Shown here: in pieces, positions 19,633 through 64,000 of the stretch
How positions within the stretch are numbered: position 1 is the first letter of the stretch
Layout: each line of letters opens with the position of its first letter
Source of the DNA: Candidatus Shapirobacteria bacterium
GTDB lineage: Bacteria; Patescibacteriota; Microgenomatia; UBA12405; UBA6130
Assembly: GCA_027039485.1 (NCBI GenBank)
Contig: JALWDZ010000026.1
Coordinates: 1,093-65,092, forward strand
DNA length: 64,000 bases
Direction of reading: 5' to 3'
Translations under genes and position numbers: made by a program
The notes under the pieces: generated by a model
What the model saw: only the letters and a program-made list of their open reading frames with translations
The model's database searches: none
What the model was told of the DNA's origin: nothing

Positions 19633-20020
19633 ATCTCAAATTCCAACCCCCCCTTCGGTAGGGGCAGGCAAATCCTAATTACCAAAATCCTAAACCCTAA
19701 ACAATGTTCAAATGATCAAAATTCAAATGTTCAAAACATTTCTTTCCTGTCATCCCGCCCTTTCTTATGAAAGAGCGGGATCTAGCCGAAGGTGCATGGA
19801 ATACTATATATTGCGCTCGCTCTGCTCGCTAGATTTTTACCCCGACGTTACGTCTTGGGGCTTCGCTAACGCTCAGAATGACATAGTTTAAGTGTTTTGG
19901 TCATTTGGTCATTTGGATTTTGAGCATTATTTAGGATTTAGGTCATTAGGATTTTGGATTTGTTATTCCTAGCTCCTAGTTCTTAGTTCCTAGTTCCATT
20001 TTCTAACTCCTAGACTCTTA
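19630..20020. repeat. nested-palindrome MITE/REPIN-like element with GC-rich core (core in reverse orientation)
   Basis: Arms caaatcctaattaccaaaatcctaaaccctaaac.../...ggatttaggtcattaggattttggatttg. Core gtcatcccgcc...cggggtaaaaatctagcgag...ctcagaatgac. 3' cctag-rich tract. Confidence 0.8.
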
Positions 20021-33479: not shown

Positions 33480-33930
33480 ATTCTAATTACCAAAATCCTA
33501 ATCCGCCAGCTGGCGGACTAAACAAATTCAAATGACCAAAATTCAAATGCTCAAAAACATTGAAACTGTGTCATTCTGAGCGTTAGCGAAGCCCCAGGAC
33601 GTTCCGCCAGCTGGCAGAGTCGGGGTAAAAATCTAGCGAAGCGCATTAATCCCACACCTGACTAACTCTCATGCGCTCGCTCCGCTCGCTAGATCTTTAC
33701 CCCTACCGAAGGTGGATTTATTCCACCGAAGGGGGGCTTCGTCGCTTCGCTCCTCAGGATGACAAGGGGAGATGTCTTTTGTTTTGGTCATTTGATCATT
33801 AGGTAATTTGGTTATTGTTTAGGATTTGGGTCATTAGGATTTAGGATTTTGCTCAACCTAGTTCCTAGCTCCATTTGAACTTTTCACTTTCCCCTTCTTT
33901 CTCACTTTTCACTTTTCACTTAAACTTTTC
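33478..33930. repeat. nested-palindrome MITE/REPIN-like element, longest copy, core present as an inverted duplication
   Basis: Arms aaattctaattaccaaaatcctaatc.../...ggatttgggtcattaggatttaggatttt. Internal 230-nt imperfect hairpin built from two inverted copies of gtcatYctgag...gaagcccc...ggggtaaaRatctagcga. 3' cctag/cactttt tract. Confidence 0.8.
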
Positions 33931-41163: not shown

Positions 41164-42134
41164 TCTTTTAAAGCTATTCGCAAAGCCTCTCCATAAGTTT
41201 CCTTTAAATAATTATTGCCGGTTATTTTCCCTATTATCCACGCCAACAAAGCCTTAGTAAATAAAAAGAGGCGGAGCAACCATTGTTGCCAAAAGCTAAA
41301 ATGGCGGCGGTAAAAATAAAGAAGCCCTCGATAAATATGCAAAATCCTCGTTTTTCTGCCCTCGGGAGAGCTAGCGCCGCCCAGATGCACTACCTTAGCA
41401 TCCCGATAAAAACCAATCCGAAACCCTAAGCGGCGGAGCCGGTAGCACCACTCGACTTCGTCCATATACATAAAAATACCCTCGTCAAAACCTCCGGAAC
41501 GGCGGAAGACTTCCCCACGCAAAAGCATAAAAGCTCCCATCACCCAGTCCGCCGGCCCAGTTTCTGACGGCGCTTTCATCGCCGCCGCCCCCCAACGGTC
41601 CAAGAAAAGCATCTGAAAAACACGGGGCAAGGTGGGGAAGACACCCACCGACGGCTGAGGGCTTAAATCCTTATTTAAAAGGCGGCAACCGATAAGATCG
41701 TATTCCGGATGGCTAGCCAGCCAAAGCAGGCTCTGGCTAATTGCCCCTTCAACCATAACAGTATCGGAATTAAGAAGGAGCAAGTATTCACCGCGGGCCA
41801 TGCGCATGCCCTGATTATTCCCCGCCCCAAAGCCAACATTTTTCTTATTTAAAACCACCCGCAGTCGCAACCGTTGTAACAATCCTTTTTTCTTTCGCCG
41901 GTTAAAATGCTGCAAATATTCTGCCGATCCATCCTGGGAATTATTATCAATAACGATTATCTCGGCAGGGATTATTTCTTCTTCTTGCTGCCGCCGGGCT
42001 AATTCGGCTGGAGAGAAAACTAGACGGCGGTCGTAACGGGCGATCGAAACCAACAACTGCTCTAAAAGTTTCTGGGTATTAAAATTAAGAATAATAATAG
42101 ATAAAACTGGCAGAAATTGGTTATTTTTAGGCAT
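41160..42134 (-). CDS. glycosyltransferase family 2
   Basis: IIVIDNNSQDGS, FGAGNNQG, MYMDEVEWCYR motifs. Confidence 0.7.
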   Translation of the reverse strand: MPKNNQFLPVLSIIILNFNTQKLLEQLLVSIARYDRRLVFSPAELARRQQEEEIIPAEIIVIDNNSQDGSAEYLQHFNRRKKKGLLQRLRLRVVLNKKNVGFGAGNNQGMRMARGEYLLLLNSDTVMVEGAISQSLLWLASHPEYDLIGCRLLNKDLSPQPSVGVFPTLPRVFQMLFLDRWGAAAMKAPSETGPADWVMGAFMLLRGEVFRRSGGFDEGIFMYMDEVEWCYRLRRLGFRIGFYRDAKVVHLGGASSPEGRKTRILHIYRGLLYFYRRHFSFWQQWLLRLFLFTKALLAWIIGKITGNNYLKETYGEALRIALKE

Positions 42135-48479: not shown

Positions 48480-49411
48480 AGCAGCTCTTGGCGCAATGGC
48501 TGTTGTTTAATTGCCCGTCGCAGCCAGCGCCATTGGGCAATAGTTGCTAAAGTAACCCGCGGGCGAATGAGGATATTTTTTTGCACGAAATTATACATTT
48601 GTCCCAAGAAATAGGGTATTTGCCACCAAGGGCGGGCTTTAATAATTGTTTTCTCCAACGCCAAAAGAACTTCCTGCTGCCGCCTTTCCCGCGCCAAATC
48701 ATTGCCTTCTTGGGGATTACTGCTTTTACGGGAACGCATATATTCCAAAGCTCGCTGGCCGCTAAAATGGTGCCAACCCTTTTGGAAACTTACCGTCCGG
48801 ACACCATGGCTGCCATCATCGCGGGGAAAATGGCTATCCCGAAAGCTCCTTTCCACATAAATATCTATTCCCCCCAAAAAATCAATCAAATCGCGCACAT
48901 TAGCCATCGTTAACAGGGCAACTTGGTCGATCTTCTGACCGGTTAGCCGCTCCACTGTCGTTTTCAACAAGCCAAAGGGATGTTGGGGATCGCGCCGGCG
49001 GCCATAATAATAAAGGGCGTTTATTTTTGTCCGCTGGTCCTCCAGCCATAAATCGCGGGGAAGAGAAAAAAGCAAGCTTTTACCCGTCTTGGTATTAACG
49101 GTGACCAAAAGAATGGTATCGGTCAAAAGGGTCGGGTTATCGGGCCGCTGGTCAAGGCCTAGCAACAAAAACGAATGGTATTGGTTTCTGTCAGGATGCT
49201 GCCAGCCCCATTTTAAATCATGATAGAGCGCCGCCGGCTTTAGATGTGCTCCCCGGGCAAACTGCCAACCGGCCCAAAAGGAAAGGAAAACAGCAAAAAA
49301 AATAACTACCCCAACAACCAATAAACTAAAAATGGCCAACTTTTTAGCAATTTGAACCAGAAAAGGGATTACTTTTTGGCCAACCATGATAAGGGTTTTC
49401 TTGTTCGCCAT
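48347..49411 (-). CDS. LytR-CpsA-Psr (LCP) family protein
   Basis: N-terminal TM then LGLDQRPDNPTLLTDTILLVTVN...SLPRDLW, typical LCP core. Confidence 0.65.
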   Translation of the reverse strand: MANKKTLIMVGQKVIPFLVQIAKKLAIFSLLVVGVVIFFAVFLSFWAGWQFARGAHLKPAALYHDLKWGWQHPDRNQYHSFLLLGLDQRPDNPTLLTDTILLVTVNTKTGKSLLFSLPRDLWLEDQRTKINALYYYGRRRDPQHPFGLLKTTVERLTGQKIDQVALLTMANVRDLIDFLGGIDIYVERSFRDSHFPRDDGSHGVRTVSFQKGWHHFSGQRALEYMRSRKSSNPQEGNDLARERRQQEVLLALEKTIIKARPWWQIPYFLGQMYNFVQKNILIRPRVTLATIAQWRWLRRAIKQQPLRQELLWQGDAAILETGIDPYYGSWILQPRRGDYGLIKQFFQTQLRHLQ

Positions 49412-50538
49412 ATCGTGGGTAATTCTAACAAATTCTTAGCTAACCACCAAAACGTTGCCGGCCATAATTTCAGCGGCGTAGTTTTCAAAAGATAACTAAA
49501 ATTGCGCCCCCGCTCTAAGAGGATCGGCCACCAATAACGGCGCCAGGTTCGAGAAGGATAGTTCTTGATTAGCAGCCACCACCAATTGCGCACCGTCATC
49601 CGCTGGCGCAAATTTCCCATCTTCCGGCTCGTGGCTCCACCCTGGTGATAAGCTACCAACTGGGGCAAAAAAAGCATCTGCCAGCCCCTTTCCCGCAACC
49701 GCAGAGCCAGATCGACATCTTCTAAATAAGCAAAAAAGCGTTCATCAAAACCGCCAGCAGCCAAAAAAGCGTCCCGGCGATAAACTACCGCCGCCCCATT
49801 AAGGCCATCCGCCAAATGCGGTTTTTTTAGCCAGGCTTTAAATTTTTTTCGTGCCTCCGACCATTTCCAACCATTGGCAATATTTTCCGCCCGACCCGGC
49901 AAAAAATACCGTAACCCTAAACTTTCAACCCGGCGGCCAGTTCGATCTAGCACTATTCCGCCAAAGGCGGCCACCCGCTGTTGCCGGTATTGCCATAGGA
50001 TTAGCTCTAAATTCGCCAGCCAATTATCAGCCAGGCGCACATCATCATTCAAGACCAAAAGATAATCGCCCCGGGCCGCCTTTGCCCCCTGATTCACCGC
50101 TCTCGCAAAACCAAGGTTTGTTTTATTAAAAATAGTTTTGATTACTATGCCAGGGGGTATGGAGAAGACGCTATCATCATGTTGGTTGTTCTCACCTTCA
50201 TTGTTGTTCCATGATTTTCTTCTCTCTTTTTTGTTTGGAATTTGAGGTTTGTAATTTTGATATTGTTTGTAATTTGCCTGCCTGCGCAGGCAGGGTGCTT
50301 GGTGCTTGGAATTTAATTCCTTGAGGAATTCTTTACTGCCATCATGAGAATTGTTATCAATGATGATTATTTCTAGGTTTTGTATTTGGTCATTTAAATT
50401 TTGATATTGTTTGTAATTTGCCTGCCTGCGCAGGCAGGGGATTTGGGATTTGGAATTTACAGCCCTAAAAAGGCTGTTGAGGCATTCTTGGAGAAGGTCT
50501 CGTCCCTGGAAATGGGGAATAATAACCGAAAGTTTCAT
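49369..50538 (-). CDS. glycosyltransferase family 2 carrying two in-frame repeat-derived insertions
   Basis: GT2 N-terminus (LSVIIPHF...CLNSL) and core (EIIIIDNNSHDGS, NLGFARAVNQG, ED motif). Two low-complexity inserts encode SKSQIPCLRRQANYKQYQN... Confidence 0.7.
   Translation of the reverse strand: MKLSVIIPHFQGRDLLQECLNSLFRAVNSKSQIPCLRRQANYKQYQNLNDQIQNLEIIIIDNNSHDGSKEFLKELNSKHQAPCLRRQANYKQYQNYKPQIPNKKERRKSWNNNEGENNQHDDSVFSIPPGIVIKTIFNKTNLGFARAVNQGAKAARGDYLLVLNDDVRLADNWLANLELILWQYRQQRVAAFGGIVLDRTGRRVESLGLRYFLPGRAENIANGWKWSEARKKFKAWLKKPHLADGLNGAAVVYRRDAFLAAGGFDERFFAYLEDVDLALRLRERGWQMLFLPQLVAYHQGGATSRKMGNLRQRMTVRNWWWLLIKNYPSRTWRRYWWPILLERGRNFSYLLKTTPLKLWPATFWWLAKNLLELPTIWRTRKPLSWLAKK
50140..50460. 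repeat. repeat-element-derived segment inside the GT2 gene (two copies of the palindrome CCTGCCTGCGCAGGCAGG plus ggatttgg k-mers)
   Basis: tttgatattgtttgtaatttgcctgcctgcgcaggcagg occurs twice (about 50268 and 50414). Near-identical to 53624..53900. Confidence 0.75.
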
Positions 50539-51632: not shown

Positions 51633-52949
51633 TTGCCTATGCTTGCCAATATTTTCATCAATTTCTTGGCCCAAGGTTATCTTTTCCTCATTTCGTTTTT
51701 TACCCTGCCAGCCATCCTCCACTATCTCGGCAAGGAACAATTCGGCTTTTTAGCCTTAGCCGCCGCTCTCCTCAATTACGCCACTACTTTCGACTTTGGC
51801 TTTGGGGCCGCCCTTACCCAACGGGTAGCTTACCTCCACTCCCAAAACCGCCGCCAGCAACTAAAAACCACCATCCAAACTGGCTTTTTAACCTACACTC
51901 TCCTAGCCGCCGCCATTATCATTTCCCTTGATCTTTTCGCCCAGCCTATCCTTCACCTCTTTAACCTTTCACCCCAACTTTTTGGCCAGGCCCAGAAAAT
52001 CATGCCCCTCATCGCCCTTAACATCGGCCTTTACTTCCCCACCATTTTTGCCGCCAGCATTTTCCAGGCCGAAAACCATTTCTGGCGCTATAATTTGCGC
52101 ACTTTTATCGTTGGCACTGCCAATACCCTCGGCGTTTTTTTCCTCGCTAGCCGCCACTTTCCCCTCATTGCCATTTTCCAACTCCAAACCGCCGCCTTAC
52201 TTCTTACTTTAGCCCTCGATTTCTGGCTCCTCCGCTCCTACCTGGCTTATCCCCACTTTTCCCGCCGCCATTTTCTTCAACTCGGCCGCTTCGCCCTTTT
52301 TAAATTTCTGAGCAACACCGCCGGCCAAATCAGCACCCAATTCCCCAAATTTTTCCTTGCTTCCCTGGTCAATGTCGCCAGCGTCAGTTATTTCACCGTC
52401 CCTTTTTCTCTCATCCAAAAACTAGGGGTCATCCTTTCCCAAATCTACATCGTTTTCTTCCCCAAGATAGCCCACCTCAACGGCCGCCAGCAATCGGCAA
52501 AAATCCGCCGCCTTTTCCAACGGGGCCAACTTCTGGTCGCCATCATTACCATCCCTGCTATTGCCTTGGGCTTCTGGCTTGGGCCACTTTTCCTCAACTG
52601 GTGGCTGAAAGATCCCCAATTTGTCCGGCAAATCTTGCCCGTCTTTAATATTCTTCTCGTTTACTTTCTGGTCCACGCTTTCACGGCCATTCCGGTGGCT
52701 ATTCTTGAAGGCATTAACCAACCCCAACTGCCGGCTCTTTTAGCTTGGATTAATGCCGCTATCACCATCGGCGGCGGTTATTTCCTTATCAAACGCCTAG
52801 CCGCTCCCGGCGCTGCTCTCACTCTTCTCGGTTACACCCTTGTCACCGGACCTTCGGTTATCCTTCTCGCCTGGCGCAGCTTAAAAATCCCAAAGCCAGC
52901 GCCAAAGCCGCCACTGGACCTTAGCTCTAGTCAACCGCTCCCGCAATAA
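51633..52949 (+). CDS. oligosaccharide flippase (Wzx/MOP superfamily) polysaccharide biosynthesis protein
   Basis: 438 aa, about 12-14 TM, typical Wzx organisation. Confidence 0.6.
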   Translation: MPMLANIFINFLAQGYLFLISFFTLPAILHYLGKEQFGFLALAAALLNYATTFDFGFGAALTQRVAYLHSQNRRQQLKTTIQTGFLTYTLLAAAIIISLDLFAQPILHLFNLSPQLFGQAQKIMPLIALNIGLYFPTIFAASIFQAENHFWRYNLRTFIVGTANTLGVFFLASRHFPLIAIFQLQTAALLLTLALDFWLLRSYLAYPHFSRRHFLQLGRFALFKFLSNTAGQISTQFPKFFLASLVNVASVSYFTVPFSLIQKLGVILSQIYIVFFPKIAHLNGRQQSAKIRRLFQRGQLLVAIITIPAIALGFWLGPLFLNWWLKDPQFVRQILPVFNILLVYFLVHAFTAIPVAILEGINQPQLPALLAWINAAITIGGGYFLIKRLAAPGAALTLLGYTLVTGPSVILLAWRSLKIPKPAPKPPLDLSSSQPLPQ

Positions 52950-53987
52950 TTGGGCAAAAGCATTGCCCAAAAAAGTAAAACTTAAAACAAGACGATAAAG
53001 CCAAAGCGGGTAATGGTGCTTTCGTAAAAATAGGAAAAGCGAGGCAAAATAGCGCCGGTAAAATTGCCACCGCTCTTTCATTTTCCAATTTTTCCAACTC
53101 CCACCGCCAAAGTGAATTATTTCCGCCGCTGGCACCACCACCAACTTACCCAATCCTAATTTTTTAACTCGGTACGACCAGTCAACATCTTCAAAAAAGA
53201 AAAAATAATCCTCGTCAAGGCCTTTTGTTTTTTGCCAAACTGTCCGCCGAGCCAGCAAAGCTGCCCCCGGCAATTGTTCAACTGGCGTTGGCATTTTGCT
53301 CACCTGGCTAAAGACCAGCCACTTTAGCGGCGTGGCTGTCACCAGCCAGCGGCCGGCCAGGCTATGGTAAAACGCCATTTGCCAAAGGTTAGGAAAACGC
53401 ATATAGTAGCGCTGCTGAAAACTGCCGTCGGGGTTTAATAACCTAGGAGACACGGCGGCCACATCGCCATGTTTTTCTAAATAGCCCACCATCTTCTCTA
53501 AGGCTCCCTTCTTAACAATAGTATCTGAATTAAGAAGAAGGATATATTTGCCTCTGGCAATTCTTATTCCTTGGTTGTTAGCCTTTGCAAAACCAAGGTT
53601 TGTTTTATTAAAGATAGTTTTAATGGCTATGCCCTGGGGTATAGAAAAAATACCACTGTGTCGGTTATTTTCACTTTCACTGTCATTCTGAGATTTTCTT
53701 CTTTTCTTTTTGTTTAGAATTTGAGATTTGGGATTTGGAATTTGGGATTTGGAATTTAATTCCTTGAGGAATTCTTTACTGCCATCATGAGAATTATTAT
53801 CAATGATGATTATTTCCATGTTTTGAATTTGGTCATTTAAATTTTGATATTGTTTGTAATTTCCCTGCCTGCGCAGGCAGGGAATTTGGGATTTGGAATT
53901 TACAGCCTCAAAAAGGCTGTTGAGGCATTGTTGGAGGAGATCCTTAGTGTTGTAATTGACAATGATAATGGAGAGGAGAGGACTCAT
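52881..53987 (-). CDS. glycosyltransferase family 2 carrying in-frame repeat-derived insertions (paralog of 49369..50538)
   Basis: LSIIIVNYNTKDLLQQCLNSL, EIIIIDNNSHDGS, NLGFAKANNQG, DEDYFFFFEDVDW. Inserts encode SKSQIPCLRRQGNYKQYQN... and SQIPNPKSQILNKKKRRKS... Confidence 0.7.
   Translation of the reverse strand: MSPLLSIIIVNYNTKDLLQQCLNSLFEAVNSKSQIPCLRRQGNYKQYQNLNDQIQNMEIIIIDNNSHDGSKEFLKELNSKSQIPNPKSQILNKKKRRKSQNDSESENNRHSGIFSIPQGIAIKTIFNKTNLGFAKANNQGIRIARGKYILLLNSDTIVKKGALEKMVGYLEKHGDVAAVSPRLLNPDGSFQQRYYMRFPNLWQMAFYHSLAGRWLVTATPLKWLVFSQVSKMPTPVEQLPGAALLARRTVWQKTKGLDEDYFFFFEDVDWSYRVKKLGLGKLVVVPAAEIIHFGGGSWKNWKMKERWQFYRRYFASLFLFLRKHHYPLWLYRLVLSFTFLGNAFAQLLRERLTRAKVQWRLWRWLWDF
53624..53900. 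repeat. repeat-element-derived segment inside the GT2 gene (palindrome CCTGCCTGCGCAGGCAGG, tandem gggatttggaattt)
   Basis: Near-identical at nucleotide level to the 50140..50460 segment (e.g. gaatttaattccttgaggaattctttactgccatcatgagaatt). Confidence 0.75.
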
Positions 53988-55231
53988 TTTTGCCGCAAAA
54001 TTCGGTAGACAAACAAATTATTAATCACTAGCCCATACGCCTCGCCAACGACCATCGCCCAGGCGGCTCCGACAACCCCCCAATGGGCAATCAAATACCA
54101 ACCACCAACAAGCATCACCAAAAAATTGGAAAAAGCCCAAGGCAAAAACTGCTTTACCCGGTCTGAATTATGAATTATATTGCCCGGCAAAGCGTTGACG
54201 AAAAAGAGAATAAGCGCCCCACCTAAAATGCGGAAAAGGGGCACCGCCGGGAGATAGCGGGGACCATAAAGAATCAAAACCAGCAGGCGGCCAGCAAAAA
54301 TAAAAACCGCGCTTAAAGGAAGAGCCAAAAGCAAAAGGCCCAACCAAAGGCGCAAATATAATCTTGGCAAATCACGGTGGCGCTGACGCAAAAGGCGCGC
54401 CGAGAGTGGGAAAAAAGCCACCGCTACCCCTTGGGGAATAACAATGCCCGCCTCGACAAATTTCCCCGCTGCCCCATAAATGCCCGCCCAATAATTTCCC
54501 AAAAGGCGGCCAACCAAAATAATTGGCAGGCGCAAATAAAAAACAGCCAGCACTAAAAGAACGGCAAAAACCCAAGCTTGGCTTAATGCTCGGCGGGCAA
54601 ATTGCCAATCTAAACGCCAAGACCAATGGGGCAAACGGTAAAACAACAGTAAAAAGCCAAAAAGAAAAAGGTAGGCCAACAAATAACCGGCCAAAACTAC
54701 CGCCAGAGGTTGGTGCCACCAAGCTGCCAGGACGGAAAACAAGCCCGAGCCAAAAGACATAGCCAAGGTTGCCCCAGCGGCGAACCAGGGGCGTTCCCGG
54801 CCATTTTCTACCGCTCCGATAATATTGAGCAAATTGGCCGGGGCCAGGGCCGCTTCGAAAACAAACAGCAGCCAAAGCCCCCGCCCGCGTACACCGATAA
54901 GCCAGGCAGCTAGCAAAGTTATAACCACGGTGGCCACGGCCAGCCACAAACGCAACGGCAACAGCTTGGCCAAAAAATCCGGCGCCTCCCGAGGATGGCG
55001 GGCAACCCAGCGCAACGCCAGGCGCTCCAAGCCAAAGTCAGCTAAGGGGTAAAAATTGTAGCCAAAGCTAATCGTCCACAACAAAAGGCCAAAATCCGGC
55101 ACCGCCAGTAATCTTGCCAGCAATAGGAAAAAAAGAAAACCTAAAGCTCGAGCAGCGATTTGCGCCCCAGAAAGGACGGCGCTGTTTAACAAGAGCTTTT
55201 TCATTCCTGCGAAAATAATTGGTCTTGCCAC
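53984..55231 (-). CDS. polysaccharide-biosynthesis polytopic membrane protein (Wzx/MATE-like flippase)
   Basis: 415 aa, about 12 TM, N-terminal [16 protein letters not shown] typical of MOP flippases. Confidence 0.5.
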
Positions 55232-56256
55232 CCTGGCGGCAGGGGTAATTTTAAGAGTTGGAACGCCCGCCGGGTGAGCATCCGCCCCCGCGGTGTCCGT
55301 TTCAAAAAGCCGGCCTGCAAGAGAAACGGCTCGTAAACTTCCCGAACTGTCCCCACATCTTCATTAAGCATCGCCGCTAAAGTTTCCAGCCCGACCGGCC
55401 CGCCCTGATGCTCTCGGGCCAATGTTTGCAAGAGATGACGATCAGTCTTGGTCAACCCCTGTTCGTCAATAGCCATCATTGCCAATGCCTCGCGGACCAC
55501 ATTTACTGTTACCTGGCCATTAGCCTCAATTTCGGCAAAATCGCGCACCCGCCGCAAAAGGCGATTGGCAATGCGGGGCGTGCCCCGGGAGCGGCGGGCA
55601 ATCTCTAAAGCGGCCGCCTCACCAATAGCCAAGCCCAAAACTCGCGCCGAACGGATGACGATTTTTTGCAAATCCTCGTTCGAATAAAAAGCTAACCGCT
55701 GGACCAATCCAAAACGGTCGCGCATCGGCGACGAAAGCAGGCCAATTCGAGTGGTTGCTCCAATCACCGTAAAATGGTTCAAATCAAGCCGTAAACTCCG
55801 CGCCGCCGGGCCTTTACCCAAAACCAAATCCAGCTTAAAGTCTTCCATCGCCGGATAAAGCGTTTCTTCAACTGATTTATGGAGGCGATGAATTTCGTCG
55901 ATAAAAAAAATGTCGCCTTCTTCTAGCGAAGTTAGAATTGAGGCTAAATCGCCGGCCCTTTCCAGAGCTGGCCCCGAAGTGACCCGAATATCCACCCCCA
56001 TTTCCTTTGCCAAAAGGGTAGCCAAGGTAGTTTTTCCCAACCCCGGCGGCCCATAAAAAAGGAGATGGTCCAAGGGCTCGTGGCGCTTCCGGGCTGCATT
56101 GATGATAATCCGCAGCTGGCGCTTTAAATTCGGCTGGCCAATAAAATCCCGCAAACTCTGCGGCCGCAAGGAAAGCTCGGCCCCCTTTTCTTCTTCGTCG
56201 ACTAATTTTTTCAAGACATCAGCGCCCATAACTTTTCCCCAATTTTTGTAACGCAA
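55201..56256 (-). CDS. ruvB: Holliday junction branch-migration helicase RuvB
   Basis: AAA+ Walker [12 protein letters not shown], sensor and winged-helix C-terminus. Confidence 0.9.
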
Positions 56257-56803
56257 ATTTTACTATTTCCTCAGTTGCCGTCACTTCTTGGGGCAAATCC
56301 CGCAAAGCTTGGTCGATTTCCGCCCGTTGGAAGCCCAAATTGCGCAAAGCTTGATAAACCTCTTCATTGCCGCCCTGGCCGGTACGCAAATCGAGGCTTT
56401 TCACCTCGCCCACTTTAGTTTTCAAATCGACAATAATCCGCTGGGCGCCCTTGCGACCAATTCCTTTCACCTGCTGAAAAAAAGCCACATCGGCTTCGGC
56501 AATTGCCCGCAAAATTCGCTCGCCATTGCCAACGGCAAAAATTTCTAAAGCTGTCCGGGGACCAACGCCGCTTACCGAAAGCAAAAGCTGAAATACTTCC
56601 CGGTCGCGGGCTTGCAGAAAGCCATAAAGATCGCTACTGTTTTCGGCTACATAATGGGCAATAAAAAGCTTGGCTTCCTTCCCTACTGCCAGTTTGCCTA
56701 AATCACGCCGGGAAAGAAAAACAAACCAGCCAATTCCCATTGTTTCAATTTCCACCCAGCCATCCCCTTTATTAGTCACCGGCCCCCGCAGACTGCCAAT
56801 CAT
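56219..56803 (-). CDS. ruvA: Holliday junction DNA-binding protein RuvA
   Basis: MIGSLRG start, OB domain, two HhH motifs ([12 protein letters not shown]...[13 protein letters not shown]), C-terminal domain III. Confidence 0.8.
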
Positions 56804-56889
56804 ATTTCTATTATAGCAGGCTGACGCCAACTACCAACAAACAACTGACCAACAACAGAAAGTAATTCCATTTACCTCGTCATGCTGAA

Positions 56890-57250
56890 ACCTACCTGTG
56901 CAGGCAGGCAATACTAAAATCCTAAATTCAAAATCCTAAACTATAAACAAATTCAAATGACCAAAATCCAAATGTTCTAAACATTTCTTTTTCTTTGCCT
57001 TTTTCTTTTGTTTTGGTCATTTGGTTATTTAATCATTTGGTAATTGTTTAGGATTTGGGTCATTAGGATTTAGGATTTGTTTGTGATTTGGTGTTTGGGA
57101 TTTGGAATTTGGTGCTTTTTTGACCTAGTTCCTCCAACCTAGCTCTTAGTTCCACTTTAACTTCTTTTCCACTTTACACTTGAATTTTTCACTTCCTTAG
57201 CCCTTCGCCCTTAGCTCTTAGCCCCTTCTTACCTAGTTCCTAGTTCCAAT
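56890..57250. repeat. nested-palindrome MITE/REPIN-like element (no GC core; degenerate CCTG...CAGG palindrome at left end)
   Basis: Arms ...aaaatcctaaattcaaaatcctaaactataaac.../...ggatttgggtcattaggatttaggatttg. Contains gtgtttgggatttggaatttgg, the same k-mers as the GT inserts. Long cctagttcctag tract. Confidence 0.8.
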
Positions 57251-58246
57251 CACCTTCTTCAGCACTCTGCCCAATTTAACCGGACTATGGCGGAGGCGCA
57301 TATTTTGCTTTTCAATAATGGCCACATCGGCAACCAAAGGTTTAGGTTGTAATTTTCTATCCACTTTAATTGGCTGGGAGTGCTCATAGCGATAAAGCCG
57401 CCATACTTTAGCCAACTGTTTCTTTGGTAAAGCCTGCCAATCAGGCATAATAACAACATCAAAAGGCCGATTCACCCGCAAATAACGGCGGAAAATTGCT
57501 AGATAATCTCGCTGGGTGCCCCACCGGCTTTCGTTAGCTACTGTCATCAAATTAGCAATCAAAATTTTCTTGGCTCGGCTTTGGCGGTAAGCAGCCGCCA
57601 TGCCCCGTGGCAAAAAATTAGCCAGCAATGACCCGTACAAACTGCCCGGGCCGATAATGATAACCTGGCTTTCTTTAATCGCCTGAATAGCCTCCGGATT
57701 TGCTCGTACCCGTGGCTCCAGCCAAATCTTCTTTACCCGGTCGGTTGACATCCGCTGCAAATCCAAATAATGTTCGCCGCGGTACTCTTGGCCGCTTAAA
57801 GTCCGAAAAGCCAAATCTGCCGGCTCGGTGGCTACCGGCACTACCCGCCCGGCTAACTTGACACCCATTAGCTCCTGAAAAAATTTGTCGGCCTGATTAA
57901 TATCCCCCAATTTCTCCACCAAAAAGCGAAAGAAACTGTTGCCAAAATTTCTTCCCCGCCCATCTCGATAGCGCAACATTTCTTGCCACAGCTTTTTCCT
58001 TTTTCCATCCCGCCAAAGAGAAATCAATGCCCGCCAATAATCAGAAAACGCTAAAAGCTGCCCTCTCTCATCGGTGCGCATCCGCCCAGTATCACCGCCG
58101 CTATCAAAAGTAGTTACCACCGAAACAATATTCTGGAACCCAGCCCGAAGGAGGGCCCTGTTAGTAACCGGCATGCCCGACCCGCCGCCGACAGTACAAA
58201 TCCTCATTACTCCATTATAACGCCCCAATGCTAAATAAAATCTCAA
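57233..58246 (-). CDS. yvcK: YvcK/CofD-like gluconeogenesis-factor family protein (UPF0052)
   Basis: MRICTVGGGSGMP...VTTFDSGGDTGRMR signature. The true start is probably the internal MRICTVGGG. Confidence 0.75.
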   Translation of the reverse strand: MRFYLALGRYNGVMRICTVGGGSGMPVTNRALLRAGFQNIVSVVTTFDSGGDTGRMRTDERGQLLAFSDYWRALISLWRDGKRKKLWQEMLRYRDGRGRNFGNSFFRFLVEKLGDINQADKFFQELMGVKLAGRVVPVATEPADLAFRTLSGQEYRGEHYLDLQRMSTDRVKKIWLEPRVRANPEAIQAIKESQVIIIGPGSLYGSLLANFLPRGMAAAYRQSRAKKILIANLMTVANESRWGTQRDYLAIFRRYLRVNRPFDVVIMPDWQALPKKQLAKVWRLYRYEHSQPIKVDRKLQPKPLVADVAIIEKQNMRLRHSPVKLGRVLKKVIGTRN

Positions 58247-58665
58247 ACAAATCCTAAATCCTAATGACCCAAATCCTAAACCTGCCTGCGCAGGCAGGTA
58301 AATCTAAAATTCAAATGACCAAATGACCGAAACCTTGTCACCCTGAACGAAGCTGAAGGCGGAGTGAAGCCCCAGCACGTTCCGCCAGCCGGCGGAGTCG
58401 GGGTAAAGATCTAGCCGAAGGCGCATGGAAAAGGATATTAGGGTATCAGGTTAATTTTCTTTTTTCTTTTTCTTTCTTTCTCTGTTCTTCTGATCTCTGA
58501 TTCTCTTTCCCTGATTACCTAATTCTTCCTGATATTCTACATTATTTAATCCCCTTTTCTTTACTGAGTTCTAAGTTCTGAATATCTAAATGTTTAGAAC
58601 ATTTGGATTTTGGTCATTTGATATTGTTTAGAATTTAGGATTTAGGATTTTGAATTTATCTTCTT
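58245..58665. repeat. nested-palindrome MITE/REPIN-like element with perfect palindrome and GC-rich core
   Basis: caaatcctaaatcctaatgacccaaatcctaaacctgcctgcgcaggcaggtaaatc... Core gtcaccctgaacgaagctgaaggcggagtgaagcccc...cggggtaaagatctagccgaaggcgcatgg. Right arm ...ggattttggtcatttgatattgtttagaatttaggatttaggatttt. Confidence 0.8.
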
Positions 58666-59163: not shown

Positions 59164-60623
59164 AAAAGAAAATAACTTATGCTTTATTGACCATTTTTAC
59201 TCTCCTCGGTTTCTATTGGCGCCTGGCTGGCCTCCGGCAAGGCTATTCCTTTTGGACCGACGAGAATCATGTAGCCATTTTCGCCCGGGCAATTCTCCGC
59301 CGCCAAACCCCTGTTCTCGACAACGGCTACAACACCGGCCTTTACCAATATCTTTGGTATTGGCTCACCGCCCTGCCCATGGCCCTAATTTCACCCCCCG
59401 AATTTGCCGCTCGCTTACCGGCAGTTTTCTTTGGCCTAGCCACTATTCTCATGGTTTATCTCCTTGGCCGGGAATTTTTTGACCCCCTCAGCGGCTTATT
59501 GGCCAGTTTTTTGGCAGCATTTTTGCGCATTGAAATCCTCTGGTCCCGCCAGGCCCGCCCCTACCAGGCTTTGCAATTTTTCCTTCTCCTGGCCGCCTTC
59601 CTGCTTCTTCGCTATTCCAAAAGTCCCAACCGCCGCCAGAAAATAGCCTATTTTGCGGGATTTTTGCTAACCGCCGTTCTGGCCAGCCTCTGCCACGGTC
59701 TCGGCCTCCTCATTTTCCTCGACGGCTTTCTCTTTCTCCTTTTGACCTCTCCCTCCCTCTCGCTCATCGCCGCCACCGGCGTTGCCACCATCCTTCTCAG
59801 CCTGCCATTCCACAAACTTTTATTAGCCATCCTCGCCAAACTGGGCCAGACCAACAATCTTTTCTACTACCGCGTTCTCCTTACTCATCATTATTTGCCT
59901 CTAACCATTCTGGCCGGCCTTGGTTTTTTCTGGCTCGGCTACCAAAGCTTCCGCCAGCCAAAATTGCGCGCCCCCTTCCTTCTTCTCACCATCCCCTTAG
60001 TCATCCAGACTCTGGTAGTTAGCCTTGCCCTTGGCCAACCCTTCGTCCGCTATTTTTACATTACCTTTCCCTTCCTCATTCTTCTGGCTGTTAGCCCATT
60101 TTTTCTCGCCCAGCATTTAGTTCCCCCAAAACGCTTTCTGGCCCTTAGCCTCGTCAGCCTTCTTCTTCTCGCTACCCTGCCCCAACTCGCCCTCCGACCC
60201 CAGAAATATTATTCCCTTAACCGCGATATGCAAGAAATTCCCGAAGTCGATTGGCAAAAAATTTATGCCCTGGTAAAAGCCTGGCGCCAAAGTCACCCCC
60301 AGGCACCGCTGGTAGTCAATTGGAATGATCTGCCAGTTTGGTATCTTGGGGAAAATCTTAGCCACCTTTACCTGCTCCGCTCTGCCCCCGCTTCCTATGA
60401 CCCACTTTCTGGAGCCAAAATTCTCCACTCAACCAATGAGCTAAAAAAACTTATCCACCAATACCCCGCCGGCTTAATCGTCCTTGATAGCTGGGATGAC
60501 CGGGTTCCCGCCGGCGTCCGCCAATATTGCCGGCAAAATCTCCACCATGAAGCCGAGGTTCGCCAACTTTTTCCCCGCCAGCCCCGCCCCTGGCCAGTTA
60601 ATATTTATTCCTGGCCTCTTTAA
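59160..60623 (+). CDS. GT39/ArnT-like polytopic membrane glycosyltransferase
   Basis: About 11-12 TM, N-terminal FWTDENHVA (DE motif in the first extracytoplasmic loop), C-terminal soluble domain. Confidence 0.5.
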   Translation: MKKKITYALLTIFTLLGFYWRLAGLRQGYSFWTDENHVAIFARAILRRQTPVLDNGYNTGLYQYLWYWLTALPMALISPPEFAARLPAVFFGLATILMVYLLGREFFDPLSGLLASFLAAFLRIEILWSRQARPYQALQFFLLLAAFLLLRYSKSPNRRQKIAYFAGFLLTAVLASLCHGLGLLIFLDGFLFLLLTSPSLSLIAATGVATILLSLPFHKLLLAILAKLGQTNNLFYYRVLLTHHYLPLTILAGLGFFWLGYQSFRQPKLRAPFLLLTIPLVIQTLVVSLALGQPFVRYFYITFPFLILLAVSPFFLAQHLVPPKRFLALSLVSLLLLATLPQLALRPQKYYSLNRDMQEIPEVDWQKIYALVKAWRQSHPQAPLVVNWNDLPVWYLGENLSHLYLLRSAPASYDPLSGAKILHSTNELKKLIHQYPAGLIVLDSWDDRVPAGVRQYCRQNLHHEAEVRQLFPRQPRPWPVNIYSWPL

Positions 60624-61989
60624 GGGCCTGTTTTTCCAACATTTGCCAAAAGCGCTGCCTTTCTTGAGGGGTTGCCTTCTGGGAATCATAATAGGTAAAC
60701 CAAACCCGATTGCTCGCCTTCTTTCTGCCAGCGCCATCTTTCACTTGGACCCAAATCCAGCCGGTTTTCGAAAGTAAGGGGTCAATTTCTACTACAATCA
60801 GCTTATCGCTCCACGCTTTTATTCTCTGGGGCCGGCCAGCTAAGAAAACCTCCGAGGTAAAAGGCAAATTGCGAAAATTGCGCCCATAGATTTTCACCGC
60901 CATATAACGGCTGGCAATATCGGGATCTATCCGTAGAATGTAGGGTTGGAATTCAAATTTAGCCCGCGCATAACGAAAAATCCTCTGGTTGCCCCGCCAA
61001 AACAACAAAAGCAAGCCAACCAAAATTATTTTCCGCCATCGCCAAGTCGCTCTTTTTTTTAGCCAGAAAATTATTGCCAGAAAAATTAAAATGAGCCAGA
61101 ATCCTAGCAAATAAGGCAAAAGCCGGCCACCGAATTCCAGCCAAAATTTATTTTCAAAAAACCGCCGGTAAAATTGGATTTCCCGACTTATGCCCAATAT
61201 TCCTAAAATCCCCAATATTCCCCCGGTAATTTCCCAAAAATATTTAGCCGCCACTAATGCTAAAGTCAAGATTACCTTTCCTATTGCTGCCATGCCCCGC
61301 CACCACCAACTCCTTCGTTCCCTCATTGTTACCAAATCTCGCGCCCACTGTTCCCGTTTCACTATCAACACCACCACCGCCTTTTGCGTTAGCAGACTAA
61401 TGCCCACTAGCATATACCTCACCAGCCCCTTTATCACCCACCCCGTCAGCGTTATCAGCCTTCTATCCGCGCCATCCGCATGTATACTATCCGCGTCATC
61501 CGCGTTCTCCGCTCCCATCAGCATTATCCGCGCTCTTATACCATCCGCGCTATCTGCGAGTTTTTTAATAAACTCGTCAAAATCCCGCCAACCTCCTTCT
61601 ATATCGCCCACAGGGCGTATATCGTCCCGCTTGCGGGGCATATTTCTATTTGTATCGCTCGCGCCAGCGAGCATGTTTCTATGTATTTCTATTAATTGTT
61701 GGATAACGCCAACCACCAGAAACATATAAGTCCAGATAGCCGCTTTTTCAGCAATTGCTTCTTGTTTGGCCATTAACAAAAAGGGGCACATCATCAAGAA
61801 AATAAGGGCCCCAAAAATAGAAAACCGCCCCTCCAGCCGCCAGCCGATCACCGCCCCAATCCAAATCGCCGTCAATCCCATAATCACCACATCCGATGTA
61901 AACCGGAAAACAAAAATATCCATCAAAATGCCGACAATTGCCGCGATTAAAAAGAAATTACGGTGATGAATAAAATATTTTTTAATCAT
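60598..61989 (-). CDS. hypothetical polytopic membrane protein with C-terminal Ig/IPT-like domain, interrupted by REP-derived in-frame segments
   Basis: N-terminal TM helices, central region encoded by atccgcg-rich and GC-hairpin repeats (...NMLAGASDTNRNMPRKRDDIRPVGD...), C-terminal beta-rich domain. Confidence 0.4.
   Translation of the reverse strand: MIKKYFIHHRNFFLIAAIVGILMDIFVFRFTSDVVIMGLTAIWIGAVIGWRLEGRFSIFGALIFLMMCPFLLMAKQEAIAEKAAIWTYMFLVVGVIQQLIEIHRNMLAGASDTNRNMPRKRDDIRPVGDIEGGWRDFDEFIKKLADSADGIRARIMLMGAENADDADSIHADGADRRLITLTGWVIKGLVRYMLVGISLLTQKAVVVLIVKREQWARDLVTMRERRSWWWRGMAAIGKVILTLALVAAKYFWEITGGILGILGILGISREIQFYRRFFENKFWLEFGGRLLPYLLGFWLILIFLAIIFWLKKRATWRWRKIILVGLLLLFWRGNQRIFRYARAKFEFQPYILRIDPDIASRYMAVKIYGRNFRNLPFTSEVFLAGRPQRIKAWSDKLIVVEIDPLLSKTGWIWVQVKDGAGRKKASNRVWFTYYDSQKATPQERQRFWQMLEKQALKEARNKY
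61430..61700. repeat. REP-like GC-rich hairpin cluster (tandem tatccgcg motifs plus gtcccgcttgcggggc and cgctcgcgccagcgagc hairpins)
   Basis: Hairpins with 7-bp GC stems in AT-rich background, matching units in 62985..63880. Confidence 0.7.
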
Positions 61990-62594
61990 TCCTTATAATA
62001 CGCATCTTCTGCCCAATTACGAGGATTATTAACAATATATTGGCGAATGTTTTCCAATGATTTCTGATTTCTAATAATTCGTTCGTAATAATTGCGTTGC
62101 CAAATTTTGCCGGCAAACGGCGGCCAATTATGTTGTTTTACATTGCGGATATATTCGTTGGTGGTCATCCGTTTAAACCATGAAATATACCGCCCCAACC
62201 CTTCATATGTATTCGGGATATTTCGTTTCGTCTGTAGGGGCGATTCCGTGTAATCGCCCTGTTGATCCGGCGATTCCGTTAACGGGCGAAAACATGGTTT
62301 CGCCAAATCATCCGGGCGAAAACATGGTTTCGCCCCTACAATTTGAATAATGCCGTGGATGTGGTTGGGCATAATAATAAATTCATCCAATTGTATCCGA
62401 CGATATTTCGCCGGTAATTTTTGCCACCAACGGTACACCATTCTGCCAATTTTGTTCATTACCATTTCGCCATTTTCTATTCGACCAAATAAATTCACCC
62501 GATTATGCACACAAATGGTAATAAAATAATATCCGGGTTGGCGATAATCGTAATTTGGCAACCTAATTGTCCTCCTATGAAAAATTTTTGCCAT
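61986..62594 (-). mobile_element. REP-associated tyrosine transposase (RAYT; IS200-like Y1 transposase) with an in-frame palindromic insertion
   Basis: HuH motif IMPNHIHGII, C-terminal WQRNYYERIIRNQ...YIVNNP block typical of 'transposase IS200-like' (PF01797) REP-associated enzymes. Duplicated 24-nt palindrome gggcgaaaacatggtttcgcc at 62270..62340 encodes AKPCFRPDDLAKPCFRP. Confidence 0.75.
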
Positions 62595-62602
62595 CTAATT
62601 CG

Positions 62603-64000
62603 TTAATGTATTAATTTTTTAAGAATTAATGTGTATCCTAGATATCCTACTGATCCCATTAAGGTCATCAGACTTATAAACAACCCAATGTAGAAAAACC
62701 GCTGGGGCCAGAATTCGACAATCAATTCATAATTTTCCCGCCCGCCAACATCGCTGGGTTTGATATACCAACTATTGGCATAGCCATTCACCAAATAATG
62801 CCGGTCTTCGGCAATTGGTTGTTTGCCCCAGGTTTCAAAAGTGGCCGGTTCCAAAAAGGTCATCCGGTGCGTGCCTTCTTTTATCTCGCCATTAAAATAA
62901 CTAGCCACCTCCGGCCCGTATCCCTTATTCTTCAAAAACCACCCCGTCACCCTCGCCGCCACTTTCCCCACAATTCCCATTAAATTATTTCTATTTGTAT
63001 CGCTCGCGCTAGCGAGCATGTTTCTATTTGTTTCGCCCCGTAAGGGCATATTTCGCGCCGAAGGCGCATATAACTTCCACCCTTTATGAAAACTTTCTGA
63101 AAACACCAGCGTATACGGCCCCTTCGCCCCGGTTACTTTTACCCGATATTTTGTCGGATTGATTTTGACAAACTCTATTTTAGGAAACCCTTTTTCAGTT
63201 TCATGAGCCGAAGACAGATTTATATCGTCCGAAGGGCTTGTATCGTCCCGCTTGCGGGACATATTTCTATTTGTATCGCGAGCGTCAGCGAGCTTATTTC
63301 TATCTATATCTTGTTTGTAATTTAGAATCTGTTTATTAATTTTCGAATTCGTTAATAAATTAATTGACTTTAATATAATCTCCGGTACTATAACCCGCCT
63401 CACTTCCAATTTCGCCAACGCCCCCACCTCAACCCCTTTTAATACCAATCGCCCTTCATCGGCAAAATTGCCAGCTTTAAAATAAGCAACAAAACTATTT
63501 CCGTTTGTATCGCCCGCAGGGCGTATTTCGCGAGCTCCGCTGTGGCGGGGCGAGCTTGTTTCGCGAGCGCCAGCGAGCATGTTTCCATCTATTTCTTTAA
63601 TTATTTTCCATTCCTCACCTTCTTTCCTTTCCTCTATTAAAATCTCCCCCGCCGGCTTTACCCCCTTCTTTAGCCGCCCTTCCACCCGATACCACTCTCT
63701 TCCCCTATATTCACCTATCCTTAGGGCAAAATTATTTTCTTCCTTTTTATCGCGAGCGTTAGCGAGCGTGTTTCTGTCTGTATCGCCCGCAGGGCTTGTA
63801 TCGTCCCGCTTGCGGGGCATGTTTCTATTTGTATCGCTCGCGTTAGCGAGCATATTTCCATTTATATCTATCAAATTTTTACTTAATCCCCTTATCGGTA
63901 AAACTATTTCCTGTTTTCCCGCCTTAAAATACCTCTCCCCCCACTCTTGCCACCCACTTATATCGCCCGAAGGGCTTGTATCGTCCCGCTTGCGGGACAT
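62603..64000 (-). CDS. hypothetical tail-anchored protein heavily invaded by in-frame REP-like units (5' partial; ORF continues past the window end)
   Basis: C-terminal TM (FFYIGLFISLMTLMGSVGYLGY). Peptide NMLA.ASDTNRNMPRKRDDTSPAGD recurs at least 5 times, each encoded by the same ~85-nt triple-hairpin DNA unit. Confidence 0.35.
   Translation of the reverse strand: MSRKRDDTSPSGDISGWQEWGERYFKAGKQEIVLPIRGLSKNLIDINGNMLANASDTNRNMPRKRDDTSPAGDTDRNTLANARDKKEENNFALRIGEYRGREWYRVEGRLKKGVKPAGEILIEERKEGEEWKIIKEIDGNMLAGARETSSPRHSGAREIRPAGDTNGNSFVAYFKAGNFADEGRLVLKGVEVGALAKLEVRRVIVPEIILKSINLLTNSKINKQILNYKQDIDRNKLADARDTNRNMSRKRDDTSPSDDINLSSAHETEKGFPKIEFVKINPTKYRVKVTGAKGPYTLVFSESFHKGWKLYAPSARNMPLRGETNRNMLASASDTNRNNLMGIVGKVAARVTGWFLKNKGYGPEVASYFNGEIKEGTHRMTFLEPATFETWGKQPIAEDRHYLVNGYANSWYIKPSDVGGRENYELIVEFWPQRFFYIGLFISLMTLMGSVGYLGYTLILKKLIH
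62985..63880. repeat. array of dispersed ~85-nt REP-like triple-hairpin units (copies near 62990, 63230, 63490, 63750, 63960)
   Basis: The unit is catgtttctatttgtatcgctcgcgNtagcgagcat, then gtcccgcttgcgggacat, then gcccgaagggc; each block has a 4-7 bp GC stem. Confidence 0.75.

Follow-up and report, generated by a model that had tools for sequence, protein, structure and literature searches.

We analysed a 64-kb window (64,000 nt) of a Candidatus Shapirobacteria metagenome contig, JALWDZ010000026.1, in which two GT2 glycosyltransferase genes contain extra in-frame segments, parts of which carry a perfect 18-nt palindrome that we call P18 (CCTGCCTGCGCAGGCAGG). Gene 1 (49369..50538, minus strand) and gene 2 (52881..53987, minus strand) are open reading frames (ORFs) of 389 and 368 aa, respectively, and both match the Pfam model Glycos_transf_2 (PF00535; 70.2 and 85.3 bits, with a cutoff of 23.3), the match being broken by the inserts into two separate stretches in each gene. 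Gene 1 is the syntenic orthologue of P0002, P0003 and P0004, with the order GT2, LytR_cpsA_psr, GT4 and PMT_2, while gene 2 sits within a conserved ruvA-ruvB-flippase-GT2 block and is syntenic with the locus L085. Pfam searches of the surroundings identified flippases, GT4, PMT and LytR genes, as in a surface-polysaccharide locus. All invariant GT2 residues, taken from the columns of an alignment of 61 homologues, are kept. The nearest named relatives of the GT2s, and of the other genes that host P18, are Microgenomates (Candidatus Shapirobacteria, Woesebacteria) and other Patescibacteria. An initial annotation, made from the letters of the window, had described the two genes as paralogues with frames kept open across inserted repeat-family DNA, sharing a near-identical segment of ~230 nt, and had taken this pattern to suggest recent gene conversion or a shared mobile segment rather than old paralogy.

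Each gene carries two inserts. Insert 1 of gene 1 (50380..50458, minus strand; ~79 nt) encodes residues N28-N54 (NSKSQIPCLRRQANYKQYQNLNDQIQN) in the loop between helix 1 and strand 2, its borders being set where the alignments with L001 and L085 break off. Insert 1 of gene 2 (53823..53901, minus strand; 79 nt) is formed by the same type of module and coincides with the break in homology to L085. Insert 2 of gene 1 (50152..50304, minus strand; residues ~H79-G129) occupies the loop between helix 2 and strand 3, and includes a 36-nt local copy of the loop-1 module, made up of P18 and the adjacent 18 nt (CAAATTACAAACAATATC). Copies of family D8 are 82-83% identical, and the local copy falls in a 36-nt gap of the alignment with gene 2 and L001. 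Insert 2 of gene 2 (53631..53747, minus strand; residues ~S81-G119) is an AT-rich scaffold with GGGATTTGGAATTT units and no palindrome. We compared the loops with those of the 61 GT2 homologues. Loop 1, from the CLxSLF to the EIIxxD motif, measures 31 aa in both window genes against a median of 7, and loop 2, from DGS to NLGFA, measures 72 aa in gene 1 and 59 aa in gene 2 against a median of 18. The extra segments are therefore inserts relative to homologues; they are absent from the syntenic gene 1 orthologue P0004 (324 aa) and from unrelated GT2s. The shared and insert region has a GC content of 31-38%, compared to ~46% for the whole window and ~50% for the flanking genes, and its GC skew is reversed. 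Each insert cassette offers one or two stop-free frames out of six, and the GT2 genes read one of them.

AlphaFold predicted a GT-A fold for gene 1 (mean pLDDT 88.4, pTM 0.86), and the best Foldseek matches of the model were GT-A enzymes (E ~1e-13); a PDB sequence search with gene 1 returned nothing useful. The pLDDT was above 90 except at residues ~31-54 and ~81-125, the two insert loops, with values of 54-60 in insert 1 and 48-58 in insert 2. Low confidence in the model is thus confined to the inserts. Loops that lead from a helix to a strand lie, in Rossmann-type folds, opposite the edge that binds the nucleotide. By this textbook geometry, the insert loops would face away from the nucleotide-sugar site, and such a position fits the tolerance of inserts.

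A distant orthologue, P0006 (JGI, 398 aa), has a third in-frame insertion in another loop (residues ~195-245, RVSGVRFQVPGFGFQVSGSGFQVSGSGFRVSGVRFQ), which looks like the G/T-rich orientation of a short-period repeat, so other loops of this GT2 family may take repeat DNA too. We also noted that the codons directly upstream of insert 1 (..NSLFxAV) form a hairpin of 6-8 bp, ACAGCCT-TTTTG-AGGCTGT, followed by AAAT. It lies at 53903-53925 and 50460-50482 in the window and at 4377-4398 in L192, with equivalents in L001, L084 and L085. In L192 the stem reads ACAGCATC-AAA-GATGCTGT, with changes on both sides and the pairing kept. Neither L002 nor the insert-free orthologue (L003) has the hairpin, which may belong to the inserted element and not to the original gene.

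P18 is exactly six codons long, has no stop in any of the six frames and folds with an energy z-score of -3.65. Four exact copies and one variant were found in the window, where none was expected from 100 shuffles, and three of the five are genic. Two are in gene 1, in loop 2 (50277..50294, encoding CLRRQ) and in loop 1 (50421..50438), and one is in loop 1 of gene 2 (53864..53881), where with its flanks it forms a near-perfect palindrome of 30 nt (53858-53887). The initial annotation had placed the palindrome also in the intergenic elements at 56.9 and 58.3 kb. An exact copy does lie at 58281..58298, in the intergenic island upstream of a CofD-like gene, but the copy at 56.9 kb, upstream of ruvA (56891..56908), is a degenerate form with 2 mismatches (CCTACCTGTGCAGGCAGG). 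The sharing of shorter words with intergenic DNA was borne out by GGGATTTGGAATTT, which is present in both genes (50445, 53730, 53744 and 53888) and at 57097.

The window contains five unusually long intergenic islands, at ~15.6, 19.6-19.96, 33.4-33.85, 56.84-57.13 and 58.24-58.66 kb. In each of them, AAATCCTAAA and CAAATGACC units make up an A/C-rich arm, GC-rich hairpin modules occupy the centre, and a second arm, which is G/T-rich, repeats the first as its inverted complement. The island at 56838..57125 shows this arrangement and has modules in common with the gene inserts, and that at 58238..58660 contains P18, a GC-rich central module and the inverted arm. A BLAST comparison of the four gene inserts with the window gave matches in the islands at 58.27-58.34 kb (E 2e-7), 58.6 kb (1e-8) and 57.07-57.11 kb (3e-7), and further ones at 56.9, 33.5, 19.6 and 15.6 kb; the sole genic match was a weak one (E 0.006) in a gene at 17.7 kb. 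Even the order of modules is the same, since insert 1, read on the coding strand, follows the island arm at 58245-58330: AAATCC scaffold, P18, NAAAT scaffold and CAAATGACC. Judged by nucleotide similarity, these results show that the gene inserts are members of the genome's intergenic repeat family. An Rfam scan of the whole window at gathering thresholds found tRNAs only and no family for the repeats.

Some features of the islands themselves may be recorded here. A GC-rich module (..AGCGAAGCCCCAGGACGTTCCGCCAGCTGGCAGAGTCGGGGTAAAAATCTAGC..) without an Rfam match is common to three island centres, at 58330-58440, 33560-33640 and 19779-19900, its copies at 33585-33637 and 58363-58415 being 91% identical. 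The island at 56917-57089 is an inverted copy of that at 58238-58657 (complementarity of the arms 89% and 98%), and the CofD-family gene between them (57233..58246) is therefore bracketed by long inverted repeats.

Comparison with close relatives pointed to a turnover of the inserts. L085, which comes from an independent metagenome, is 90.2% identical to the window over 2.6 kb (56539..53902), a region spanning ruvA, ruvB, the flippase and the start of gene 2. Homology ends at 53902, the left border of insert 1, and resumes at 53822 for 83 nt (94%). It is lost again at insert 2 (53740-53630) and regained (88%) for a last 143 nt. Three cassette types, unrelated to each other but alike in length, were found at the insert-1 site. 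The window genes and P0013 have type A. Type B, found in L001, L002 and L085, is a long bulged hairpin (GTCGCCAGCATCAGC...GCTGATGCCTGGC), and in type C (L084) the same scaffold start is followed by CGTC-tagged hairpins. In L192 (P0041), loop 1 is scaffold only, without a GC palindrome. Insert-1 cassettes of all types fold as hairpins, and the hairpins in the inserts of L001, L002 and L084 consist of CGTC, ATCCTGAA, a 5-nt loop and TTCAGGAT. At the level of DNA alignment, these comparisons show cassette replacement at fixed borders. The matches to the islands, the other cassettes in L085 and the absence of the segments from P0004 and unrelated GT2s together uphold the view that repeat-family DNA was inserted in frame.

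We then considered the similarity between gene 1 and gene 2. Pairwise nucleotide alignment showed a sharp step in identity instead of uniform divergence. Nucleotides 40-233 of gene 1 (50306..50499, minus strand) and 46-239 of gene 2 (53749..53942, minus strand) are 94.3% identical over 194 nt without a gap (blastn, family D5). The following ~160 nt, up to the NLGFA motif, are 78% identical (50105..50264 and 53587..53742, minus strand), and over the last ~700 nt of the gene pair no nucleotide similarity was detectable. Sliding identity along the pair accordingly runs from 61% to 93-98%, then 70-84%, and falls to a background of ~50-70%. The near-identical segment of ~230 nt claimed by the initial annotation thus holds for ~200 nt, and is continued by ~160 nt of intermediate identity; it is not a single block. 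The 194-nt tract has 11 differences, spread over nine codons (five synonymous changes and four nonsynonymous), and is therefore young relative to the paralogy. Its divergence is about the same as the ~6-10% that separates the window from L085.

A similar disparity between the two halves of the protein was seen across genomes. The N-terminal cores of the gene 1 and gene 2 products are 81% identical and their C-terminal parts 24%. By their C-terminal parts, the homologues form three subfamilies, namely I (gene 1, P0002, P0003 and P0004), II (gene 2) and III (P0013, P0035, P0038 and P0041). The insert-bearing members (gene 1, gene 2, P0002, P0013, P0035 and P0038) share 69-93% identity in the N-terminal core, including pairs whose C-terminal parts reach only 21-26%. 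Gene 1 and the insert-free P0004, in contrast, have 51% identity in the core and 58% in the C-terminal part. The identity matrices of the two parts therefore disagree. In L001, the 5' end of the gene 1 orthologue is 95% identical to gene 2 and 88% to gene 1, and its DNA is 84% identical over 2.8 kb downstream. P0035, which takes the place of gene 2 in the syntenic order, differs in its C-terminal half, so synteny breaks inside the gene, just past the shared module. Exchange involves the N-terminal half of the GT-A domain as a whole, which extends from about the start codon to NLGFA. A search of the genome contigs with this N-terminal module found distant GT2s only, the best being 47% identical (Candidatus Shapirobacteria), and no further gene with a cassette. 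Look-ups of the exact proteins of gene 1, gene 2 and P0013, the last a possible third type-A gene, returned no record. Gene conversion or a shared segment, as opposed to old paralogy, is supported by the identity step, by the presence of the N-terminal module on three subfamilies, by the 5' end of L001 and by P0121, a second assembly of gene 1 with 387 of its 389 residues unchanged.

P0121 departs from gene 1 only at the two insert-1 residues that distinguish gene 1 from gene 2, A40G and L55M (window positions 50421-50460 and 50375-50377), and has the gene 2 state at both, inside the shared tract. This points either to conversion still under way in the population or to a mixing of reads from the two copies. 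A third GT2 gene of the window (41160-42134, minus strand) also has a long loop 1 (ARYDRRLVFSPAELARRQQEEEIIPA), with no P18 and no strong hairpin. A 35-nt stretch of this gene over the EIIVIDNNS motif is 83-86% identical to genes 1 and 2 (family D12).

To follow P18 outside the window, metagenome contigs were searched for exact P18 followed by NAAAT, a pattern which imposes the NAAAT flank on every match. The search recovered 106 contigs, largely from groundwater and sediment projects, with 104 unique P18 copies, of which 55 were inside stop-free ORFs of at least 150 aa. The reading frames used were LPAQAG (40 copies), PACAGR (13) and CLRRQ (2), so that the GT2 genes use the rarest. Host genes identified with Pfam were MetRS, ribosomal protein S1, AspRS, RadA, class-I aldolase (FBA), MurC, RRF, PheS, HflX and Fmt, and hosts include both Microgenomates-type (Woesebacteria) and Parcubacteria-type (Minisyncoccia) bacteria. 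The two positions preceding P18 (-2 and -1) are purine-rich. A strict NAAAT target site was dropped from consideration, the flank having been imposed by the search pattern. Phage vectors for P18 were also unsupported; of the 25 matches in viral contigs, almost all fall in contigs of 58-67% GC, where the GC-rich 18-mer is embedded in longer palindromes of other kinds and is probably unrelated to P18.

Orthologous genes with and without P18 allowed the insertion to be defined precisely. Among the 120 closest orthologues of a Woesebacteria RarA (69-100% identity), the site was empty in 117, filled in 2, and occupied by an expanded variant in 1. Empty RarA reads GYGEGYEKYTKE and filled RarA reads GY-D-LPAQAG-KY. 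In the DNA, the empty TACGA|AAAAT corresponds to the filled TACGA[P18]AAAAT, an exact insertion of 18 nt with no target duplication. P18 is also identical in four diverged filled RarA orthologues, although the flanks around it have changed. In the Minisyncoccia-type RRF, the empty EGRQIK and the filled EGR-PACAGR-QIK differ by six codons in a comparison made at the protein level only; a 95%-identical orthologue is empty and an 86%-identical one is filled. These alleles suggest that the smallest mobile unit is the bare 18-nt palindrome, inserted exactly into many unrelated genes. At the same site, the RarA orthologue P0231 reads LPANVKRQALQAGK, which looks like P18 with a further central insertion (a nested or extended palindrome).

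From these results we consider it likely that selfish palindromes, similar to repetitive extragenic palindromes (REPs) and Rickettsia palindromic elements (RPEs), are tolerated in surface loops of the GT2 proteins, and that gene conversion or cassette exchange among the GT2 paralogues acts on the same region. A Patescibacteria (Microgenomates-like) genome would have been colonised by short GC-rich hairpin modules embedded in AT-rich oligo-repeat scaffolds (AAATCC and CCAAAT units). The elements would fill long intergenic islands as well as the two permissive GT-A loops (helix 1-strand 2 and helix 2-strand 3), where a stop-free frame would allow their translation as disordered polar loops. They would be selfish or neutral passengers, kept only where a stop-free frame meets a disordered loop. 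Their turnover may take two forms, the exact insertion of bare P18 and the swapping of whole loop cassettes between close relatives, for which the 92-95% identical flanks in the N-terminal module could serve as recombination substrates. Homologous recombination or gene conversion would homogenise the N-terminal module from the start codon to NLGFA and move cassettes between genes, and between the two paralogues it could have produced the 94% tract.

Two extensions of this interpretation are more tentative. P18, and probably its sister hairpins, may be ultra-small mobile palindromes, capable of exact insertion and perhaps excision, that have spread horizontally across Patescibacteria and routinely settled, as (D/G/N)-LPAQAG-K loops, in essential housekeeping genes, with the recombining N-terminal module of the GT2s as landing pad and shuttle for such cassettes; we regard this as possible but lean against it. 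With similar reserve, we put forward that P18 might move as a single-strand hairpin ('peel and paste') with the help of a HUH/Y1 transposase (RAYT or IS200-like) acting in trans. A candidate mobiliser is the RAYT-like ORF at 61986..62594 (minus strand), whose link to P18 is inferred only. It scored 24.4 bits with Pfam Y1_Tnp (cutoff 23), and HUH and YY motifs are visible in its translation; a PDB sequence search with this ORF gave nothing useful.

Several observations weigh against the overall interpretation. The RAYT-like ORF scored 57 bits with the NCBIfam model REP_Tyr_transpos, below the cutoff of 80, and the hairpins that flank it are of a family other than P18. A tblastn search with its protein against ~190 fetched loci found the window copy only. 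No transposase was linked to P18, and P18 was not seen flanking the RAYT-like gene. Given the sub-cutoff score, the other hairpin family and the lack of a homologue in the fetched loci, we lean against the HUH/Y1 step. NAAAT follows all four exact copies of the window, yet of 26 additional copies from metagenome loci that were free of the search bias just 4 have it. Together with the flank imposed by the search, this allows at most a preference for NAAAT, and no target specificity is established. P18 also lacks the GTAG or CGTC tag of classical REPs, and the translation of the inserts is something we infer from the open frames alone. Finally, P18 copies are nearly always perfect (132 exact, compared to 6 with up to 2 mismatches), and no decayed remnants were present among the 120 RarA orthologues. 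This fits very recent spread or precise excision, but also selection on the DNA itself, and hence a function.

The near-perfect conservation leaves room for a functional DNA signal, and this was the strongest of the rival explanations. P18 and its sister hairpins could be DNA or RNA signals under selection, for instance the binding site of a dimeric protein, a DNA-uptake or recombination signal, or an mRNA-stabilising hairpin, with the GT2 loops merely tolerating them. Besides the scarcity of near-variants, the identical P18 in the four diverged RarA orthologues, the occurrence of one 18-mer in hosts of 30-62% GC and the strong bias in reading frame speak for such a signal. However, part of the excess of perfect copies comes from searching by exact match, an ascertainment effect. 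On its own, the 9-nt half-site shows no enrichment (144 occurrences, compared to 132 full palindromes), which argues against an uptake-type signal, and the density of P18 is low, at ~1 per 16-32 kb. No copies were found in the close relatives L085, L001, L084 and L192, and 117 of the 120 RarA orthologues are empty at the site, with one more holding the expanded variant only. A promoter and terminator scan of 49.3-58.8 kb gave counts within shuffle expectation and called no terminator at the palindromes. We therefore consider a functional signal unlikely. A DNA uptake sequence (DUS/USS-like) in particular was rejected, given the half-site counts and a density of ~0.03 per kb where ~1 per kb would be expected.

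A second alternative is that the GT loops are hypervariable for adaptive reasons, or that cassette exchange has been selected to diversify surface glycan synthesis genes. Both loops vary in several GT2 subfamilies of the clade, the genes are part of a locus for surface polysaccharides (flippases, GT4, PMT and LytR), and the synteny with L085 breaks inside the GT2 gene, as would be seen at a recombination junction of a variable locus. Nonetheless, the loops are predicted by the model to be disordered and by textbook geometry lie away from the active site, and the peptides they encode are set by whichever frame of the repeat is stop-free. The same elements are also found within unrelated housekeeping proteins and in non-coding DNA, and selection for loop diversity appears rather improbable as the source of the inserts.

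Low-complexity expansion by replication slippage of AT-rich codons, with the likeness to repeats due to shared composition, is less probable still. The scaffolds are short-period AT-rich units, P0041/L192 has a loop 1 of scaffold only with no GC palindrome, and K/N-rich loop expansions are also present in the homologues P0006, P0007 and P0009. Slippage would not account for an exact GC-rich 18-nt palindrome shared with an intergenic site and with zero expectation in shuffles, for alignments of 70-80 nt to the islands that preserve the order of modules, for unrelated GC-rich hairpin cassettes swapped at identical borders, or for the exact insertion of P18 into non-repetitive housekeeping genes, and is largely refuted by them. 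Least credible is an assembly artefact, in which repeats gave rise to a chimeric or collapsed metagenome-assembled genome and hence to the shared tract; although the source is a metagenome contig and read mixing could give the gene-2-like states by which P0121 differs from gene 1 (P0001), the two copies are set apart by 11 differing positions and a 36-nt indel, and the same architecture with intact frames is found in independent assemblies of other samples (L001, L002, L084, L085 and P0121).

We compared the palindromes with known systems. Rickettsia is the textbook case of palindromic 'selfish DNA' lying in frame within proteins, an oddity that for REPs has been catalogued in cultured bacteria. 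RPEs, reportedly described by Ogata et al. in 2000, are to our knowledge ~100-150 bp long and restricted to Rickettsia. The elements described here resemble them in forming palindromic families, several to a genome, that are both intergenic and in frame within genes, where they are tolerated at surface regions; in-frame insertion into conserved proteins at tolerated sites was found in GT2, RarA and RRF. They differ in being modules of 18-80 nt in AT-rich scaffolds, in belonging to Patescibacteria, and in that P18 is stop-free in six frames, and they are likened to RPEs by description.

REPs are GC-rich stem-loops of 20-40 nt, dispersed, sometimes intragenic and sometimes clustered so as to encode tens of residues (PMC3733652). 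Intragenic REPs with GTAG or CGTC tags have been described, and the CGTC class includes the Rickettsia elements RPE-4 and RPE-6 (PMC3733652). P18 is likewise a short, GC-rich and dispersed stem-loop, though its 18 nt are at or below the usual size. In contrast to REPs, it is not predominantly extragenic, as seen from the 55 of 104 unique copies in ORFs. Since it differs from REPs in both tag and location, we describe P18 as working like a REP or RPE and not as being one. The hairpins of the L001, L002 and L084 inserts are closer to CGTC-tagged REPs, with CGTC, an 8-bp stem starting with AT and a 5-nt loop. REPs may flank a RAYT gene, an arrangement termed a REPtron. A RAYT-like gene is present in the window, but the hairpins flanking it belong to another family.

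Members of the IS200/IS605 family use a HUH/Y1 enzyme for hairpin-defined single-strand transposition without target duplication. P18 is similarly defined by a hairpin, the RarA DNA shows no target-site duplication, and a HUH/Y1 enzyme is encoded in the genome. Unlike these elements, P18 has no transposase gene within or next to it, the putative mobile unit being the bare 18-nt hairpin. Yeast mitochondrial GC clusters and fungal double-hairpin elements are mobile GC-rich hairpins of AT-rich organelle genomes. Other organelle hairpin elements are the RHEs of sponges (PMC2800124) and the palindromes of Volvox (PMC2670323). The organelle elements are comparable in that GC-rich hairpins invade AT-rich spacers and occasionally genes, with filled/empty polymorphism and preferential spread, but they are not bacterial, are usually longer and imperfect, and share no known sequence with those described here. 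The sharp identity step, the discordance of N- and C-terminal parts and the junction in a conserved GT motif are reminiscent of gene conversion between paralogues and of mosaic surface-polysaccharide glycosyltransferases. In contrast to usual gene conversion, the tract redistributes repeat cassettes, and the module is common to three GT2 subfamilies across genomes. Our literature searches found no account of such elements in Patescibacteria/Candidate Phyla Radiation, and no paper with the P18 string or the LPAQAGK peptide.

If this interpretation is correct, some of the unexplained insertions and 'low-complexity' segments in proteins of Patescibacteria would be repeat-element DNA. Annotation, the assignment of orthologues and structure prediction could all be misled by them. 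With its clean filled and empty alleles, a six-codon palindrome would provide a convenient natural marker of recombination and horizontal spread in uncultured populations, as well as a minimal substrate for studies of hairpin-based DNA mobility. The GT2 genes would illustrate how, in very small genomes, the mosaic evolution of genes for surface glycans can be driven by shared repeats together with a half-domain that is conserved.

The neighbourhood of the RAYT-like ORF contains a second, unrelated family of short hairpins, built from TATCG and GCTCGCG.CAGCGAGC or GTCCCGCTTGCGGGAC and CATATTTC units and located at 61598-61700, 62986-63034, 63219-63321, 63504-63606, 63736-63879 and 63958-64000. 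Members of this family lie in frame within the ORFs 60598..61989 and 62603..64000, where they encode repeated RNMLAGASDTNRNMPRKRDDTSPSGDI-like peptides. Their most similar pair (94%, in direct orientation) brackets the RAYT-like gene, an arrangement that recalls the left and right ends of IS200/IS605 elements. The RAYT-like ORF is itself interrupted in frame by hairpins, GGGCGATTCCGTGTAATCGCCC at 62238 and GGGCGAAAACATGGTTTCGCCC at 62314, which encode AKPCFRP repeats and sit between the HUH motif and the C-terminal YY motif. Its stop codon overlaps the start of the next gene.

We also profiled the GC skew of the plus strand between 47 and 60 kb. The skew was negative (C over G) in nearly all intervals, whichever strand the genes were on, and was reversed in the repeat inserts and in parts of the intergenic islands. 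This pattern resembles the strand disparity reported for the Microgenomates order UBA1400 (PMC7143001).

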